From: a virus
Taxonomy: Duplodnaviria; Caudoviricetes
IMG/VR virus record: IMGVR_UViG_3300032360_000008
Coordinates: 1 to 55,887 of that record
DNA length: 55,887 nt
Direction: 5' to 3' (one strand)
Shown: in pieces, positions 39,883 through 52,161 of the stretch
Layout: every line of letters begins with the position of its first letter
Position numbering within the stretch: the first letter of the stretch is position 1
Position numbers and translations under genes: made by a program
Notes under the pieces: model-generated
Database searches by the model: none
What the model was told of the DNA's origin: nothing
The model's input: the letters and a program-made list of their open reading frames with translations, nothing else

Positions 39883-40646
39883 TTAATGGGGATTGTTTAG
39901 AGGAAATGAAAAAACTTTCAGATGAAAATATAGATATTATTATAACAAGTCCACCTTATGAAAAATTAAGAGCATATAACGGATATTCGTTTGACTTTGA
40001 GGGAGTAGCAAAAGAGATTTTTAGAATTATGAAAAAAGGTGGTGTGGTTATATGGGTTGTGTCAGATAGTGTGATAAAAGGAAAAATAAACGGAACAACT
40101 GAATCAGGTATTTCATTCCAACAGGCTTTATATTTTAAAGAATTAGGTTTTAACATACATGACACAATGATATATTCTAAGAAAGGATCATCATTACCTG
40201 ATCCAACTAGATATTTTCAAAAGTTTGAATATATGTTTGTTTTAAGTAAAGGAAAACCTAAGACAATAAATCTAATAAAAGATAGAAAAAATAAAAGTGT
40301 AGGAAAACCTAAGACAACTCATAGTAGAGATGAAAATACTAATAAAATAAATTACTATAATACATATATTACAAAAGAATATGGATTAAGATATAACATT
40401 TGGAATATTAATGAGGGATATATGTTGTCAACTAAAGATAAAATAGCATTTGAACACCCTGCAATATTTCCTGAATCATTGGTAAGAGATCATTTATTAT
40501 CATGGTCTAATGAGGGGGATATGGTATTAGATCCGTTTGCTGGAAGTGGAACTACATTGAAGATAGCAAAAGAATTAAATAGAGAATATATAGGTATAGA
40601 GATAAGTTCTCAATATTGTGATATAATTAAGGAGAGATTAAAATGA
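39873..40646 (+). CDS. Beta-class N4-C/N6-A DNA methyltransferase
   Basis: GDCL, ITSPPY, HPAIFPE and VLDPFAGSGTT. Confidence 0.92.
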   Translation: MSIINGDCLEEMKKLSDENIDIIITSPPYEKLRAYNGYSFDFEGVAKEIFRIMKKGGVVIWVVSDSVIKGKINGTTESGISFQQALYFKELGFNIHDTMIYSKKGSSLPDPTRYFQKFEYMFVLSKGKPKTINLIKDRKNKSVGKPKTTHSRDENTNKINYYNTYITKEYGLRYNIWNINEGYMLSTKDKIAFEHPAIFPESLVRDHLLSWSNEGDMVLDPFAGSGTTLKIAKELNREYIGIEISSQYCDIIKERLK

Positions 40647-43075
40647 ACATAGATAAACTAAAAGAAATGGGATTCAATCTCATTCCACTTAAACCAAAGT
40701 CCAAAGAGCCTATTGGTGGTCTTAATTGGAAGCAGTTCCAAGAGGACAAATACACGGGTAGTTACCCTGATAGTTGTAATGTAGGAGTTATATGTGGTCG
40801 TTCAAGTGGTAATGTTTTTGTTGTTGACTTGGATGATACAACATTATATGACGATTACCCAGAGGAAATAAAGAATACATTTACAGTTAAAACAGGTAAG
40901 GGTTATCATATATATTATCACTTTCATGGATTCCCACCACCAAATAAAAAACTAGATGATAAAAGGGGAAGACACATTGATATAAAGTCACAAGGGGGAT
41001 ATGTACTTGCACCAACAAGTGTACACCCAAATGGCAGTATATACACAGCAATAAATGAATCACCAATTATGGACATAAGCATACAGAAACTAAAAGAACA
41101 CCTATCAAAGATGGGATTCAATGTTGAAACCAAGCCTGTAGAGGAAATAGAGGGGGGTATATCAGAAGGTGGTAGAAACGATGCTACTTTCAAGTACGCC
41201 TGTTATCTTATAAGAGATAAGGGATTATTTGGGGAAGCATTAAAGTTAGAGATAGACAACTTAAACCAAAAACATACCCCACCATTACCAGAGTCAGAAT
41301 TAAGTTTAATTATATCACAAGCAGAAAAAGCAGAACATAAAAACATGACAAAGCACATAGTAGATGCAAGGTCAGTTGTTGAGAAACTTTCAAATGCTCC
41401 ACTTAAACTAACAATGCAGGATATAACACCTACCTATGAGAACAAACCAATAGAGTTTGATTGTATGATCACAGCAGTAGGAGAACGTATGACTTATACG
41501 GTTTCAGCAGATTGTAGTTGTGCATTATGTGGTGCTTCCAAGAAAGTATTTTGTGATGACTTGCATATATTACAAATACCATATTGTATGAATGATAAAA
41601 GAGCATACGATATAGATGAGAGTACAAAGATTACAGCATATATACAGCAAATGAGAATACAAGAGTTCCTAGAAACTGCTAGAAATGCCACACCAATAGA
41701 GTTTGATGCAGAGATTACTGATGAAGATGTGGGGGAAGCATTTATTGGAGATAGAAAAACAGTAGTAGCAAGATTCCGTTCAATACCAAAACCAAAGAGT
41801 GCATATAATGATATTGTATTTCAGATAAATCACATGAAAGACTTGGAACAAAAAGAGGGTTGTATGCCTAGTCAGCAGGAGATAGACAAGTGGAGTAAAA
41901 TCAATATATTTGAGAGAGTAACTGCCTCTATTGCACCTGATATATACATTAACCCTAAAATAATAGAGTCATTAATCCTATGGGCTTGTGGTGGTAATAG
42001 TCTTAATGGTAAGCGTGACCTTATCCATTGTGGTATATTGGGAGATGCTCAATTAGGCAAGTCAGATCTATTACTAAAGATGTATAAATTATTGCCCGGT
42101 TCAGGATATACGGTTGGTAGAAATACTTCTGGTGCAGGATTAACTATTGCTATGGTAAAATTATATAATGGCACAATGATTCCAAAAGCAGGATTCTTCC
42201 CACAACACACAGGACACCCATGTATCATAGATGAGATAGACAAAATGAAAAAGGAAGATCACAATTCATGTCTTGAAGTTATGGAGCAACAAACAACCTC
42301 ACAGGCTAAGGCAGGTACAGGTGGTGGTCTTACATTACCTACAAAGTGTCCGTTACTCATAGCAGGTAATCCAAAGAACGGTAAGTTTAACCCAAAATAC
42401 CCACTTGTTATGGACAACTTTGACATGGAAACACCGTTTGTATCTCGATTTGATATTTTATGGCTTCTAGTTGATGAAAATGATCCTGAAAGTGACAAAC
42501 TAATTAGAAAATTTATCAGAAGTTATCAAAGTAGAAAGCAAGATTATATGACAGTTGAGGAATTACAGCGATACTTTGAATATATACGTTCACTTGATGC
42601 AACAGTTCCAGATGAACTAATGGATAGAATAGATGAGTTACATACAAAAATGCGACCACTAAATGTTGACAGCGGTGTTCCTATTGGTTGGAGACAATAT
42701 CATGGGTTATATCGACTACTCACAGCAAGTGCCAAAGCAAATTTGCGTAGTGTAGTTTGTGATGAGGACTTTGAAATTGTTGAGAATATAATAAAAGAAT
42801 CCTACAAGAGTATGAGTATGAACTTGGAAACAGGCAAGAGTAGCGATACTCACAAGAAAACAAGAGATACAAAGAAAGAAACTATTCTATTAACTTGGGG
42901 AGAATGTATGGATGAGTCAATAGATAACACCGTAGACAAGAAAGAGTTCATAGATGCCCTAGCAAAGAAAGATGGATTTAATGCACTTGATGCTCCAATG
43001 GTATTTTCAAAAATGTTAGATAATGGGGATCTTATATATGATAATGATTTAGAAAGGTACAAGAAGGTAAGATAA
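40643..43075 (+). CDS. mcm: Primase-polymerase (Prim-Pol + PriCT) fused to MCM helicase
   Basis: NVGVICG, VVDLD, TGKGYHIYY, GGYVLAP.S.H and EGGRND. MCM motifs GDAQLGKS, SGAGLT, IDEIDKM, EVMEQQ, AGNP and SRFD. Confidence 0.92.
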   Translation: MNIDKLKEMGFNLIPLKPKSKEPIGGLNWKQFQEDKYTGSYPDSCNVGVICGRSSGNVFVVDLDDTTLYDDYPEEIKNTFTVKTGKGYHIYYHFHGFPPPNKKLDDKRGRHIDIKSQGGYVLAPTSVHPNGSIYTAINESPIMDISIQKLKEHLSKMGFNVETKPVEEIEGGISEGGRNDATFKYACYLIRDKGLFGEALKLEIDNLNQKHTPPLPESELSLIISQAEKAEHKNMTKHIVDARSVVEKLSNAPLKLTMQDITPTYENKPIEFDCMITAVGERMTYTVSADCSCALCGASKKVFCDDLHILQIPYCMNDKRAYDIDESTKITAYIQQMRIQEFLETARNATPIEFDAEITDEDVGEAFIGDRKTVVARFRSIPKPKSAYNDIVFQINHMKDLEQKEGCMPSQQEIDKWSKINIFERVTASIAPDIYINPKIIESLILWACGGNSLNGKRDLIHCGILGDAQLGKSDLLLKMYKLLPGSGYTVGRNTSGAGLTIAMVKLYNGTMIPKAGFFPQHTGHPCIIDEIDKMKKEDHNSCLEVMEQQTTSQAKAGTGGGLTLPTKCPLLIAGNPKNGKFNPKYPLVMDNFDMETPFVSRFDILWLLVDENDPESDKLIRKFIRSYQSRKQDYMTVEELQRYFEYIRSLDATVPDELMDRIDELHTKMRPLNVDSGVPIGWRQYHGLYRLLTASAKANLRSVVCDEDFEIVENIIKESYKSMSMNLETGKSSDTHKKTRDTKKETILLTWGECMDESIDNTVDKKEFIDALAKKDGFNALDAPMVFSKMLDNGDLIYDNDLERYKKVR

Positions 43076-43512: not shown

Positions 43513-44082
43513 ATGATAATATTTAAAACCAAAAAGATTGACGAGAAAAAATATAGAGACATTATACAGCGTACAATTATATTAAATGGTCACGATGGAA
43601 CTCATTTATCGGGATATAACGCTTGGAAAAACTTTGATGAAACATGGTCATTATATATTATACCTGTAACAGAACAGGAAGAATATAAGAGATATTATGG
43701 TCATTTAAGAGTAGAGACTTCAGATGGTATTGCGTGGGGAGTAACAGGTCAAAAAGTGATATATATGTTCGTCAATGATTCAGCAAACTCATTCATTATA
43801 CGACAGAACATCATGCCACTTGCCCATGAATTATTACACGCTATATATCAAGATGCAGTTGGAACACAACATATAGTAAGGTTATATGATTCACCAGAAG
43901 GCAAAGCAGGAACAAGTGGTGCAAGAGCAACAGTTATTGTTCACGATAATTGGTATGGTTCAAAGGACACAATCAAGATATGGATTCGTTGGGGGTTAAT
44001 TTGGTTGCCAATAACTATACCATATATACCAATAAAGAAAGCAAAGGAAATTTACAATATAGATACATTACCATTGAGTTAG
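43513..44082 (+). CDS. Putative zinc metallopeptidase (HExxH)
   Basis: LAHELLHA preceded by beta strands (WGVT, IYMF). Confidence 0.65.
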   Translation: MIIFKTKKIDEKKYRDIIQRTIILNGHDGTHLSGYNAWKNFDETWSLYIIPVTEQEEYKRYYGHLRVETSDGIAWGVTGQKVIYMFVNDSANSFIIRQNIMPLAHELLHAIYQDAVGTQHIVRLYDSPEGKAGTSGARATVIVHDNWYGSKDTIKIWIRWGLIWLPITIPYIPIKKAKEIYNIDTLPLS

Positions 44083-46473
44083 AGTGGTCTGTTCCCCTCT
44101 GCCCATCAATATATCGATACTAATTTTCATCGGTTCACACACTTGACTCATCACACTTTCTAAACTTTCCATATATTTTACCTTGTCAATATCACTATGG
44201 GTTGCCATACTTAGTGGACATACTTTGGGATCTTTCCATGTTTTTACAAACTCTACATATTGTCCTTTCTGCACATCACCCAACTGTTCTCCCGCCTTTA
44301 CCGCCTGTGGTTTTGTCTTATATTCAGAAGGTTCTTTGGCAATCATTACTTTAAATGATAACTGATCAAGTGGTATAGTATCAAAGTTGTCTATTACAGT
44401 TTTTATAACATAACTAACTTCTTGTTTTACCTCGTAGAAATCAGACATACTCTCGATAGGCTTGATTTTCTCTAGTACATCATTAAACAATCGCTTCACA
44501 AAGGGGGGTGTATTTGACTTTTTACCACTCAAACCCTTAATGTCTAGACTACCATCTTTCTTGACACCAAAGTAATTCTTCTTTCTGTCACTTAAAACCA
44601 AATATTTATACTCTTTGTCGATCTCTAAATCTATAGAATAATGATTTTTACAAAAATCAATAAGATAATCAACCTGATCTGTGGTTGGCTTGTGGACAAA
44701 AACGGAATCAGTATCTCCATAAAGGACAGGAAGACTTATGGTTTTGGCAGTTTCTATCGTCTTTGAAATTATATCACGACCAACAGCAGTTACAGCTTCG
44801 GCAGTTGGCAGGAAATATAACGAGAACGTTTCAGCACCAATCACACCGTAACTTGCGTTTAAAAATACCTTAAGTGCTTGTGCAATAGTATTGTTTATAT
44901 CACGGTCTTTTTGTGTTTTACCTGTCTTACTTAACACCTTGAAATGATTTACTCTTAGTTCCTTTAGTGATCCAATCAATAGTGATGCCATACCAATCTT
45001 TTTTGTGCATGACCAATGTTTAGTATAAGGTATTATATTATTTTTACATTCTTCATGGCAACAGCATACTGTTTCGTATGATATATTTCGAGTTTTTATT
45101 ATACTTGGATATAGACTTGCAAAGTCAAGTACGGTAACATCAAAATGAATACCACTTACAGGTTCTAATACCTCTGCACCCTGATATTTCTTGCCTTTCA
45201 CACCCGCAGTAGTTGTTCCTTCAATTCTAGGAAAGTCTACACTTCGGGGTATTAGTTGGTTATTTATCCTATGCTCATTATAAAACATACTCTTAATCCA
45301 ATTAGATATACTAAGCCTTGATATATCGTCAATAGGCATATTACCCACCCTGCACAATATAACCAACAGATTCATTACCAAGTCGTTGTGATAATGTGAA
45401 AGTTCATAGGTCAATCTGCTATCGTTATAACAATATTTGCTCAGTAAATTCAATGATATATCAGCAAGACTACCCGTATATTCCACCTTCTTCTCTCCAA
45501 GCATGGCTTCACTCACATCATCTAGTTTATCTGTGATATACTTTGCACCAAAGGCATATATTTTGAGGGAACGATTTGAAAATACACTATACAAGTCAAT
45601 ATGAATACCATTATTCAAGGTAGCCTTTTCTTTCATCATTTTAAATGGGTTATACTCTAGTCCAAGTACGTTAGCCCTGTTACACAGGTAAGGCATATCA
45701 AATATATCACCGTTATATGTCAGTACAACAGGGTAAGAATCTATTACTTCAAATACCTGTTTTAACAGTTCTTTCTCATCATCAAACCATATAATTTCAT
45801 AATCTCTACCTATATCTTCCTCTCCCATAGCCACTTCTGGTCGCTTGAGGGTATATACTTGCTTTCTATCGTCAGAATGAAATGATACAGCAGTTACCCT
45901 TTGAAGTGCCTTGCTTGTATCAGGCATTGTATCTCCTACTTCCACCTCAATATCAAACGCAAGTCGTTTTATACTTGGTATATCTTGACCAAGCAGATTA
46001 GCCCACTTTGTAACTTGATCACTAAATAATTCAGTATCAACAACAGAATCCATATCTATATTTTTAAGATTAAACTTGTTCTCATTATATTTTAGAGATT
46101 TAATTTCGTTATTATTCACTTCATACCAAGTTCCAACGATATATTTATTATCATACAAGAAACTTTGGTAATATTTTATATCTCCTTCCCAACACTTGCC
46201 TGAATCTCTCAGTTCATATATTACACTTGGATTATCCACACTAACCTTTGACATTTCACGGGATTCATCCTTTACTATATCATATATATCGACATCCTGT
46301 ATATTGTTGATACCCATCATCCCCTGCAACTTTGTTGCTTCCTCTCTTTTTATATAACAGGATTGTTTATAGTCGGTATTCTCTACCATTATAATTTTGT
46401 TAGTTGTTGGTTCATAGAATTTTAATATAATTTTTCGTGCTTGAAACACACACGATAATAACATACATTTCAT
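44068..46473 (-). CDS. polB: Family B DNA polymerase, archaeal type
   Basis: AFDIEV, YNGD.FD and YCYNDS (exonuclease). DFASLYPS, K..LNASYG, YGDTDS and KKNY (polymerase). Confidence 0.95.
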   Translation of the reverse strand: MKCMLLSCVFQARKIILKFYEPTTNKIIMVENTDYKQSCYIKREEATKLQGMMGINNIQDVDIYDIVKDESREMSKVSVDNPSVIYELRDSGKCWEGDIKYYQSFLYDNKYIVGTWYEVNNNEIKSLKYNENKFNLKNIDMDSVVDTELFSDQVTKWANLLGQDIPSIKRLAFDIEVEVGDTMPDTSKALQRVTAVSFHSDDRKQVYTLKRPEVAMGEEDIGRDYEIIWFDDEKELLKQVFEVIDSYPVVLTYNGDIFDMPYLCNRANVLGLEYNPFKMMKEKATLNNGIHIDLYSVFSNRSLKIYAFGAKYITDKLDDVSEAMLGEKKVEYTGSLADISLNLLSKYCYNDSRLTYELSHYHNDLVMNLLVILCRVGNMPIDDISRLSISNWIKSMFYNEHRINNQLIPRSVDFPRIEGTTTAGVKGKKYQGAEVLEPVSGIHFDVTVLDFASLYPSIIKTRNISYETVCCCHEECKNNIIPYTKHWSCTKKIGMASLLIGSLKELRVNHFKVLSKTGKTQKDRDINNTIAQALKVFLNASYGVIGAETFSLYFLPTAEAVTAVGRDIISKTIETAKTISLPVLYGDTDSVFVHKPTTDQVDYLIDFCKNHYSIDLEIDKEYKYLVLSDRKKNYFGVKKDGSLDIKGLSGKKSNTPPFVKRLFNDVLEKIKPIESMSDFYEVKQEVSYVIKTVIDNFDTIPLDQLSFKVMIAKEPSEYKTKPQAVKAGEQLGDVQKGQYVEFVKTWKDPKVCPLSMATHSDIDKVKYMESLESVMSQVCEPMKISIDILMGRGEQTTLTQW

Positions 46474-50570: not shown

Positions 50571-50777
50571 TCAATCTAAATCATTCCTCATATCTTCATG
50601 GTTTGGATTAGCATTACATTCAGCACAACAACTTATACAATAATCTATCGATTGCATATCATTACCTATTCCATATTCGTGATCGCAAATTTCCTCGCTT
50701 CCACAATCGTCACAAAATATATCATAGTCGTTTTCTCTTGGGTTATTCATTCTAACTACCATATTAGTTAATACCAA
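50571..50777 (-). CDS. Acidic Cys-rich protein (true start probably the MNNP ATG)
   Basis: CDDC..C.H...CISCCAEC. Confidence 0.6.
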   Translation of the reverse strand: MVLTNMVVRMNNPRENDYDIFCDDCGSEEICDHEYGIGNDMQSIDYCISCCAECNANPNHEDMRNDLD

Positions 50778-50810: not shown

Positions 50811-51107
50811 TTAAGCAGGGGTTATAATAACACCCTTTTTTAATCCTCTCAATTTCTTTTGTTTCCACTTGATTTCTTTTTCAAGTTCTGTTGCTTCTTT
50901 CTTTATTTCTTTGGGTAATATTTTGTTATAACACTTCATACAATATTCGTTATATTGCATACACCCATACGAATTATAATCTAGTTGTTCACGCATAAGT
51001 TGATCACCCGATTTTAATTCTACTCGGCATTGTCCACACCAAGTTCCCCAACGTCTTTTTCGGGCTTTAGATTTGTAAAAATGGGATATTGCCATTATAA
51101 TCCACAT
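50811..51107 (-). CDS. Zinc-finger plus coiled-coil protein
   Basis: KARK...CGQC...G......YCMKC. Confidence 0.65.
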   Translation of the reverse strand: MWIIMAISHFYKSKARKRRWGTWCGQCRVELKSGDQLMREQLDYNSYGCMQYNEYCMKCYNKILPKEIKKEATELEKEIKWKQKKLRGLKKGVIITPA

Positions 51108-51274
51108 TTCCTTAATTCTCGATCTACGGATTCTTTTTCTTCGTCTGCGATTGAATCAAAATATTCAGACAAGATTTCAAATCCTTTTTTGTAGTTTGGG
51201 TTTGTCATACCTCTCTATACATTATTAATTATATATATTGTGCCAAGTACACCAAGATCACCAAGTAATTATAC

Positions 51275-51296
51275 TTAGTATAGTACACTATACTAA
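51275..51296. promoter_or_regulatory. Perfect 10-bp inverted repeat TTAGTATAGT-ac-ACTATACTAA (operator-like)
   Basis: Read directly from the sequence. The half-site resembles the TACTATAC element in the 49.5 and 52.9 kb promoters. Confidence 0.5.
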
Positions 51297-51330
51297 TATA
51301 AACACATATATTGAAGTTACACTATACTAT

Positions 51331-51541
51331 TGTTATCAAGCAGAAAGCAATAAGTCAAGTCATTCTTGATAGGTTTAACACACCGATAACCAAGTGCTAA
51401 AGTGTTAATGCTTGATAGTGGTCTTGGAACACAGCCCACTTAAATCGTGAGTGTTTCCAGACGGGTTTAGGTAATACCGTATTAAATATTATACCTAACT
51501 CATTCATACCCCTGAAATTTAAGGGATTTTTTTTCGGGGGT
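51331..51541 (+). ncRNA. Candidate ~210-nt structured RNA (three-way junction plus three hairpins)
   Basis: Stems 51331-42/51409-20, 51355-59/51365-69, 51375-81/51402-08, 51421-32/51451-62, 51467-73/51492-98 and 51508-17/51532-41. Several G-U pairs on the + strand. Confidence 0.5.
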
Positions 51542-51616
51542 TATTATTATTTTAAATATACTATCAACCTCAGTTTTTTATCAAAATTTTTATCTGGGCT
51601 TCTGTAATTCACGGGG

Positions 51617-51818
51617 TATATCATATATTATATATCCTGCATATCTTCCATAGCAGGTGGTGACAAATTACTATATAAAGACACTATATAAACGCAGGAC
51701 AGGGAGGCAGGACAAAAAAAATTATATGATATATGATATATGAATCCCCCCCAGCAGGATGATCATCTCCATCATCAGGATGATGTTTCGCTGGATATAT
51801 AATATATCATATAATTTT
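51617..51818. repeat. Inverted-repeat region with GGATATATAATATAT and GCAGGA boxes
   Basis: Perfect 17-bp IR at 51718-34/51802-18 enclosing CCAGC/GCTGG and CATCATC/GATGATG. The box occurs at 51637(-) and 51793(+). Confidence 0.75.
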
Positions 51819-51936
51819 ACCAACCACTACACTTCAGATTAAACTGTACGGAATAACCATACGGTTTTTAATACTTATATACTTCTATAAAATTTATATT
51901 AAAAATATGACTTGATAAAAAAAGAAAATTTTTTGG

Positions 51937-52161
51937 TTATACACCAAAAGTTTGAGAATCTTCGCCCTGCATTTTCTTTAACATTTTTGCACAAGCAAAA
52001 CCTAAAGTTTCTTTAAGTTCTGTTAATATAACTTTGGTTTCTCCCTTAGTTATACCAAATTCTTCTCCCGATTGATATAAAAGTTCGGTGGAATGTTCTT
52101 TAGGCACACTTGTTATAATTACCCCTGCAACAGCACAGAACATTTCTTTATTGGTGATCAT
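51937..52161 (-). CDS. Hypothetical protein
   Basis: 74 aa, overlapping the upstream stop. Confidence 0.6.
   Translation of the reverse strand: MITNKEMFCAVAGVIITSVPKEHSTELLYQSGEEFGITKGETKVILTELKETLGFACAKMLKKMQGEDSQTFGV

Follow-up and report, generated by a model that had tools for sequence, protein, structure and literature searches.

A conserved, strand-biased structured element with constant ends and exchangeable hairpins in a marine, probably archaeal tailed virus

The virus and the gap between its minus-strand genes

The DNA analysed here, which we refer to as the window, is a single IMG/VR record (IMGVR_UViG_3300032360_000008) of 55,887 bases that is classed as linear, has a completeness estimate of 88% and a G+C content of ~31-35%. 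Plus-strand genes extend from ~2.5 to 44 kb and include those for the portal, a protease, the large terminase, an NHL-repeat protein and a PrimPol-MCM fusion. The region from 44 to 56 kb is made up of minus-strand genes, with a family B polymerase, an MT-A70 methyltransferase and many small ORFs. Both the gene strand and the GC skew switch near 2 kb and again near 44 kb, the latter being the point at which the two replication genes converge (Table 1). No tRNA or tmRNA gene was found by a scan for them.

To place the virus, we compared its terminase with the GenBank phage collection, in which the top match is a haloarchaeal tailed virus (26% identity, E 2e-26), well above the bacterial phages. 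Several genes of the window are leaderless, with a TATA-like box ~28-31 nt before the ATG. At the 37-aa gene, a stretch of 54 nt (51156-51209) is 87% identical to ORF33 of the Nitrosopumilaceae spindle-shaped virus NMP1 (BK067782.1). Based on the terminase match, the ORF33 match and the TATA-like boxes before leaderless ATGs, the host is probably archaeal and perhaps a member of the Nitrosopumilaceae. Since this small 37-aa gene is shared by the tailed virus and a spindle-shaped one, the two may draw on a common pool of hosts; the gap upstream of ORF33 in NMP1 contains no related element.

The element described here lies in a gap of 728 nt (51209-51936) that separates the 37-aa gene from a 74-aa gene, both on the minus strand. 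An initial annotation of this DNA had named it the largest ORF-free gap. It contains no supported ORF, but ORFs of 33-43 aa are present and its rank by size is approximate. The same annotation had placed the element antisense to the early region; the element does lie on the other strand from the gene blocks on either side, yet no supported ORF overlaps it. As a cis-antisense feature within 51209-51936 it accordingly has no partner among the supported minus-strand ORFs, though it may overlap an unannotated minus-strand UTR. A conserved small ORF was ruled out as well: the short ORFs of the window run across modules that relatives lack or have replaced, so the element carries no coding signal. 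The gap matches only itself within the window, making the element single-copy. Dispersed copies of the MITE or REP type were not found in the window, and modules taken from two relatives, L033 and L034, likewise occur nowhere else in it. On the minus strand, T7-T8 runs follow immediately after the 74-aa gene.

Just past the element, an AT-rich sequence of ~24 nt occurs in three copies in inverted orientation (51617-51640, 51718-51741 and 51795-51818), with the G/C-rich direct repeats ATCCCCCCCAGCAGGATGAT and ATCTCCATCATCAGGATGAT sitting between the copies. This repeat region (51560-51830) is partly kept in L036, L038 and L039 and is missing from L028, L032 and L033; it may represent a further element with a part in regulation or replication. 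A C/D-box reading of 51744-51800 was dropped on inspection by eye, as there are no D boxes.

Table 1. Coordinates of the element, its parts and the genes discussed in the text
Feature	Position	Strand	Remarks
PrimPol-PriCT-MCM fusion protein	40643-43075	plus	Converges with the family B DNA polymerase at ~44 kb
Family B DNA polymerase	44068-46473	minus	PF00136/PF03104 match; converges with PrimPol-PriCT-MCM at ~44 kb
37-aa gene	51095-51208	minus	First gene of the minus-strand block; divergent from the element
Promoter-like box	51304-51317	plus	TATA-like ATATATTGAAGT at 51306-51317, A-rich stretch before
Conserved spacer TACACTATACTATTGT	51318-51333	plus	From by-eye alignment of 10 upstream regions
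Module M1, three-way junction	51333-51418	plus	P1 51333-51342/51409-51418, with P2 and P3; linker GAAAGCAATAA
Hairpin H2	51421-51462	plus	Core GGAACAC/GTGTTTC 51426-51432/51451-51457; outer GUCU/AGAC
Hairpin M7	51463-51501	plus	TTAGGTA/TACCTAA plus lower GGG/CTC
Terminal hairpin T	51508-51541	plus	10-bp stem, loop UUUAAGGGAUUU at 51518-51529
U/A-rich tail TATTATTATTTTAAA	51542-51556	plus	Presumed termination zone
74-aa gene	51937-52161	minus	Convergent with the element; homologue beside the hairpin in 11 of 12 related loci

The element and its relatives

On the plus strand, the element folds into a three-way junction followed by three hairpins. The closing stem of the junction (51331-51342/51409-51420) comprises nine Watson-Crick and three G-U pairs, as the initial annotation had it and as the sequence and the pair list both confirm. 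It encloses two inner helices, and the same three-way junction was returned independently by RNAalifold on six homologues. The resulting consensus places P1 at 51336-51342/51409-51415, extendable to 51333/51418, P2 at 51354-51359/51365-51370 and P3 at 51375-51381/51402-51408. The three further hairpins described after the junction are also present, and follow one another as H2, M7 and the terminal hairpin.

Compared with shuffled sequences, the plus strand of the window element folds moderately well, at -54.3 kcal/mol with a z-score of -2.55 (3 of 200 shuffles as good). The minus strand reaches -52.3 kcal/mol and a z-score of -2.84 (1 of 200 as good). G-U pairs had been taken earlier to single out the plus strand, and for the window alone this does not hold: the minus strand folds equally well, G-U pairs number six on the plus strand versus five on the minus strand, and in one alternative inner helix the wobble falls on the minus strand. 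The initial annotation did not recognise the family, and Rfam gave no match at gathering score in the window. With Rfam 15 on 51100-52000 and E-values up to 10, only noise of the miRNA and snoRNA type was returned (best 25.5 bits versus a gathering score of 70), and a search with six relatives at E up to 0.05 yielded a single noise match outside the element. Near matches to the terminal loop, counted as possible targets in the window, occur 15 times versus 15.0 expected.

We then collected relatives of the element. Nothing similar to the gap was found in the GenBank phage collection. Within IMG/VR, the 152-aa neighbour used as an anchor led to 20 distant loci, none of them similar to the gap, and polB used as an anchor led to three loci (L024, L025 and L026) with 75-84% protein identity. 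In L024 and L025, the closest relatives by polB, the corresponding position is also occupied by a gap, but its sequence is unrelated and includes no homologous element. L026 shares with the window only the last hairpin and the tail and is missing the 5' motif; its terminal stem departs from that of the window in a G-C to A-U exchange and in U-G pairs that are shifted. The terminal hairpin of L026 and the window, with the middle of the stem left free, served as a search pattern against a metagenome collection, which returned 12 contigs, 11 of them related; the remaining one, L029, was a GC-rich chance match and was set aside. In IMG/VR this pattern found only the contig of L026, and the 5' motif found one match, a chance occurrence in coding sequence. 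Among species-representative prokaryote genomes the hairpin pattern gave two matches, both by chance, and hence no sign of a host-borne copy. A covariance model of M1 found only its six training sequences among 36 sources, with no match to the M1' variants described below or to L024-L026. Invariance of the loop and of the CCC/GGGGG stem ends in the 11 contigs was imposed by the search pattern, L026 alone being independent of it. The flanking genes of the relatives align at ~90% column identity; since the relatives are this close, independent changes are few and covariation is thin.

The syntenic gap of L025 (1040-1420; also L024, 1-320) is, for its part, packed with near-perfect hairpins. There the gene-sense strand folds better (z-score of -4.98 versus -3.85), and its end consists of a hairpin followed by U7. 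Hairpin-rich gaps may therefore be general in this virus group, with no fixed strand.

Across the related loci, the position of the element is constant: it is flanked by the 74-aa gene homologue and by a minus-strand gene block, both of which run on the other strand. The homologue stands beside it in this orientation in all loci but one, a contig that ends 6 nt past the hairpin. In L026, the terminal hairpin is kept although the flanking proteins are only 42-61% identical. The full-length set, which has both ends, comprises ten sequences (the window, L028, L031-L037 and L039), eight of them distinct; L030 and L038, which are cut by contig ends, and L026, which is without the 5' motif, were left out of it. 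Full-length elements measure 186-338 nt, and all ten begin with TTGTTATCAAG and finish in the terminal hairpin.

The interior is a mosaic. The three-way junction M1 is found in the window, L028, L030, L034, L036 and L039; in a variant, M1', P1 is kept around an unrelated interior (L031-L033, L035 and L037). Module M2 is a GTTAATC/GATTAAC stem (z-score of -3.84), and module M3 is a second three-way junction with a 10-bp stem (z-score of -2.82). Other exchangeable modules include H2, M7, two units with pseudoknot-like interleaved helices, and more. In L036, an extra hairpin is inserted in the M2 loop, and the stem is prolonged across the insertion. Turnover of modules is fast, given that it takes place between genomes whose flanks are ~90% identical. 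The ~210-nt structured RNA of the initial annotation is thus not a single fixed structure but belongs to a modular family whose two ends alone are constant.

The two pseudoknot-like units lie next to each other in L028 and L031-L033 and are candidate H-type pseudoknots. The helices AGCA/UGCU and UGACAC/GUGUCA interleave in unit 1, and AGAGGAAU/AUUCCUCU and GGAUCAC/GUGAUUC in unit 2 (as DNA, AGAGGAAT/ATTCCTCT with GGATCAC/GTGATTC). The window retains only the second helix of unit 2.

Kept pairing, strand preference and the two ends

Pairing is largely kept among the relatives. In M1, 96.8% of 126 cells pair, versus 28.6-44.4% with the partners slid. P2 has one compensatory pair, A-U in the window and G-C in the five others, and M1 also has two changes from C-G to U-G. 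In L028 and L034, the outermost three pairs of P1 do not form. In the 3' half, for which four sequences are available, 93.5% pair, versus 19.6-56.5% when slid, with two compensatory pairs. The core of H2 reads GGATCAC/GTGATTC in L028, L031 and L033, an A-U to U-A swap relative to the window, with the G-U pair kept in all four sequences. M7, 95% paired, has a U-A to C-G change in L031 and L033 and likewise keeps its G-U pair in four of four. The terminal stem is represented by nine sequence variants, all of which fold, and none of which has an A-C mismatch; it varies between G-C and A-U at level 6, among A-U, G-U and G-C at level 8, and between C-G and U-G at levels 4-5. Altogether, compensatory changes are seen in four helices. 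The observed value is attained by 87 of 500 shuffled controls for M1 and by 20 of 500 for the 3' half, which is not significant, and paired changes in an inverted repeat are also what would be expected of a dyad-symmetric DNA-binding site.

The plus strand has the lower minimum free energy in all eight distinct members, by 2.0-18.3 kcal/mol. Dinucleotide-shuffle z-scores range from -2.25 to -6.14 on the plus strand and from -1.0 to -3.94 on the minus strand, with the plus strand stronger in seven of the eight; the exception is the window. An unfiltered, strand-symmetric stem search gave 26 G-T versus 22 A-C pairings, that is, no asymmetry, and strand asymmetry shows up only when the energies, or the helices that the plus strand folds into, are considered. 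The strand preference emerges at the level of the family and not in the window alone.

Upstream of the element lies a promoter-like box whose exact 12-mer, ATATATTGAAGT, has only two copies in the 55.9-kb window. The second copy is on the minus strand (50790-50779), 28 nt before the conserved ATG (50762) of the gene at 50571-50777. An equal distance, 28 nt, separates the plus-strand copy from 51334, where pairing in P1 begins. Carrying over the 28-nt spacing from the gene promoter, we predict a transcript start at ~51334-51335. A sigma-70-type reading, with TATACT at 51323-51328, predicts a nearly identical start, so the estimate is independent of the host domain. The box is conserved upstream of the element in all nine relatives whose sequence extends to it, and in these an A-rich stretch, ATATATATT and a 17-nt spacer precede TTGTTATCAAG. 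L031, L033 and L035 each carry a gene-sense copy of the box back to back with the plus-strand one. Between such back-to-back promoter-like boxes upstream of the element, L028, L031, L033 and L035 carry a TATAC run of 3-6 copies; the window has just two copies of ACACTATACTA, 34 nt apart.

At the other end, the conserved terminal hairpin has a stem of 9-11 bp and is followed by a T-rich tail in all eight variants that reach that far, the tail beginning with AA in several relatives. In the window, a T8 run lies in the 3' arm of the hairpin. A consensus terminator scan missed the terminal hairpin, whose loop, at more than 8 nt, is too long for it. On the minus strand, the tail site has A runs and no T tail. 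Termination is presumed to occur at the U/A-rich sequence of the tail.

Interpretation and comparison with known RNAs

Judged from its sequence and that of its relatives, the locus is a real, conserved, strand-biased structured element. That it is also an independently transcribed plus-strand structured ncRNA, representing a new modular family, we regard as probable. The proposal of a viral ncRNA on the plus strand, made in the initial annotation, gains from the fixed position and orientation, from the promoter-like string at a fixed distance, from the terminal hairpin with its U-rich tail, from helices kept by compensatory or wobble changes and from the better plus-strand folding in all eight distinct relatives. 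Transcription, both RNA ends and the mode of action we infer from sequence features of this kind.

The region from 51304 to 51556 would then be a small independent plus-strand transcription unit inside the minus-strand early gene block. Its TATA-like box, a copy of the promoter of the neighbouring leaderless gene, would start an RNA at ~51334, the 5' end of P1; the RNA would fold into the three-way junction, two hairpins and the terminal hairpin, and the U-rich tail would stop transcription near 51545-51556, giving a product of ~210-220 nt. With both of its ends locked in helices, such an RNA should be long-lived. Across relatives, the constant parts are the promoter, P1 and the terminal hairpin, including loop UUUAAGGGAUUU, the interior being made of exchangeable hairpin cassettes; since only the ends are constant, the essential function may reside in them. 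The 5' helix and the 3' hairpin would confer stability, the loop would offer a fixed contact for a protein or RNA partner, and the cassettes would act as variable binding or stabilising modules. We infer that the most likely mode of action is that of a trans-acting, stable decoy or scaffold RNA.

We weighed this reading against others that account for part of the same evidence. As the initial annotation also allowed, the hairpins could act in plus-strand ssDNA as a strand-specific initiation signal, for example for the PrimPol-MCM of the virus on unwinding, the virus encoding both this fusion and a family B polymerase. A plus-strand hairpin cluster with G-T tolerance would suit ssDNA hairpins equally, and the AT-rich inverted-repeat region (51617-51818) adjoins the element; those inverted repeats, however, are missing in L028, L032 and L033, which retain the element, and the switches of gene strand and GC skew near 2 kb and 44 kb lie away from it. 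As such a signal also gives no role to a promoter string at a fixed distance from P1 or to a T-tailed hairpin, we consider it unlikely. Better plus-strand folding in eight of eight members and the conservation of G-T over A-C are not predicted by a duplex site either, which makes it quite unlikely that the locus is a dsDNA regulatory array, in which operators for a dimeric regulator of the divergent early promoters would produce RNA structure as a by-product of their dyad symmetry. Such an array could draw on the locally enriched heptamer CTTGATA, of whose 19 copies in the window four lie in the 728-nt gap, three of these four building P1 and P2; on the paired changes that preserve the dyad symmetry of P2; on the promoter region that the element adjoins; and on the syntenic gap of L025, likewise rich in near-perfect palindromes. 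Stems of 7-11 bp with loops of 5-20 nt and nested junctions are nevertheless unlike operators, as are swaps of whole hairpins within a retained closing helix.

A further reading takes the hairpins as a gene-sense array on the minus strand, in a 3' UTR or between operons, with a role in stabilising the upstream early mRNA or in terminating it. In its favour, the gene blocks on either side are both minus-strand, the minus strand of the window folds as well as the plus strand, and in L025 it is the gene-sense strand that folds better and ends in a hairpin and U7. We find this improbable: the T7-T8 runs right after the 74-aa gene on the minus strand suggest that transcription may stop before reaching the element, the terminal hairpin read on the minus strand has C-A mismatches in seven of nine variants and no U tail, and the plus strand folds better in all eight members. 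Least of all do we expect functionless palindromic filler, that is, an AT-rich intergenic recombination hot spot that gathers hairpin-forming insertions. Rapid module turnover between ~90% identical flanks, modest z-scores for the window alone and non-significant shuffle controls would agree with it; the ends, however, are constant, P1 is retained around two unrelated interiors, four helices have compensatory changes, the terminal hairpin is kept in L026 with flanking proteins at 42-61% identity, and the modules are not dispersed elsewhere in the genome.

As a transcribed ncRNA, the element would have its nearest functional counterpart in the small structured RNAs that serve animal viruses as decoys. 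The adenovirus VA RNA and the Epstein-Barr EBERs are small structured RNAs that act as protein decoys; they are transcribed by eukaryotic Pol III, have one fixed architecture each and have known protein partners. Like them, the element is virus-encoded, in the range of ~160-220 nt, hairpin-dense and non-coding, with its own promoter (here putative), ends held in helices and a U-rich 3' end. Unlike them, it has interior hairpins that are swapped among relatives and a prokaryotic host, probably an archaeon, and no sequence or model match links it to them. The pRNA of phi29-type phages is also phage-encoded, shorter than 250 nt, built on a three-way junction core and located among early genes, a likeness that is superficial. 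Its architecture is kept across relatives, whereas the element varies from 186 to 338 nt, swaps its modules, keeps only its ends and has no Rfam match. Phages like phi29 have a polymerase of the protein-primed type; the polymerase of this virus instead matches PF00136/PF03104. The element is a member of neither the animal-virus decoy RNAs nor pRNA.

Primase-recognition signals of ssDNA phages and plasmids resemble it in being strand-specific, non-coding hairpin clusters of 100-200 nt on a replicon with its own primase. These initiation signals need no promoter or terminator and lie at or near origins, whereas the cluster described here is bracketed by a gene-type promoter string and a terminator-like hairpin. 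GOLLD, ROOL and HEARO in Rfam are, like the element, orphan, highly structured, virus-carried RNAs found by comparative genomics; the element differs in being much smaller and modular, and in matching no model.

Among archaeal viruses, some such as SSV1 are reported to make non-coding and antisense transcripts in early regions (bioRxiv 10.64898/2026.06.17.732947). SSV1 belongs to a different virus family and infects a different host from the tailed virus analysed here. We know of no homologous element in SSV1. At the level of titles and abstracts, the literature yielded no described ncRNAs of marine uncultivated archaeal tailed viruses, and at that level the non-coding RNAs of archaeal viruses appear to be almost unexplored territory.

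With constant ends and interior hairpins that can be swapped, a compact unit running from promoter to terminator would make a tractable new RNA family, would serve as a metagenome marker of this virus group and would offer a natural experiment in modular RNA evolution. If it does act as a decoy or scaffold, it would point to a new host-virus interface in abundant ocean archaea. We speculate, as a long shot, that it exemplifies a new class of viral RNA, a cassette RNA, in which a fixed chassis, made up of the promoter, the 5' closing helix and a 3' hairpin of invariant loop, carries fast-exchanged, autonomous hairpin, junction and pseudoknot modules, each a decoy for a different host RNA-binding or defence factor, and in which swapping between co-infecting marine archaeal viruses would amount to an arms race at the RNA level. 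The predicted ends, at ~51334 and ~51545-51556, are directly testable in stranded metatranscriptomes.

Elsewhere in the window, the palindromic motif GTATGATCAT (GATCAT) occurs at least four times in the divergent intergenic region at 2259-2522, which separates minus-strand from plus-strand genes and coincides with the left switch of gene strand and GC skew, a cluster that by its sequence looks like an operator array.
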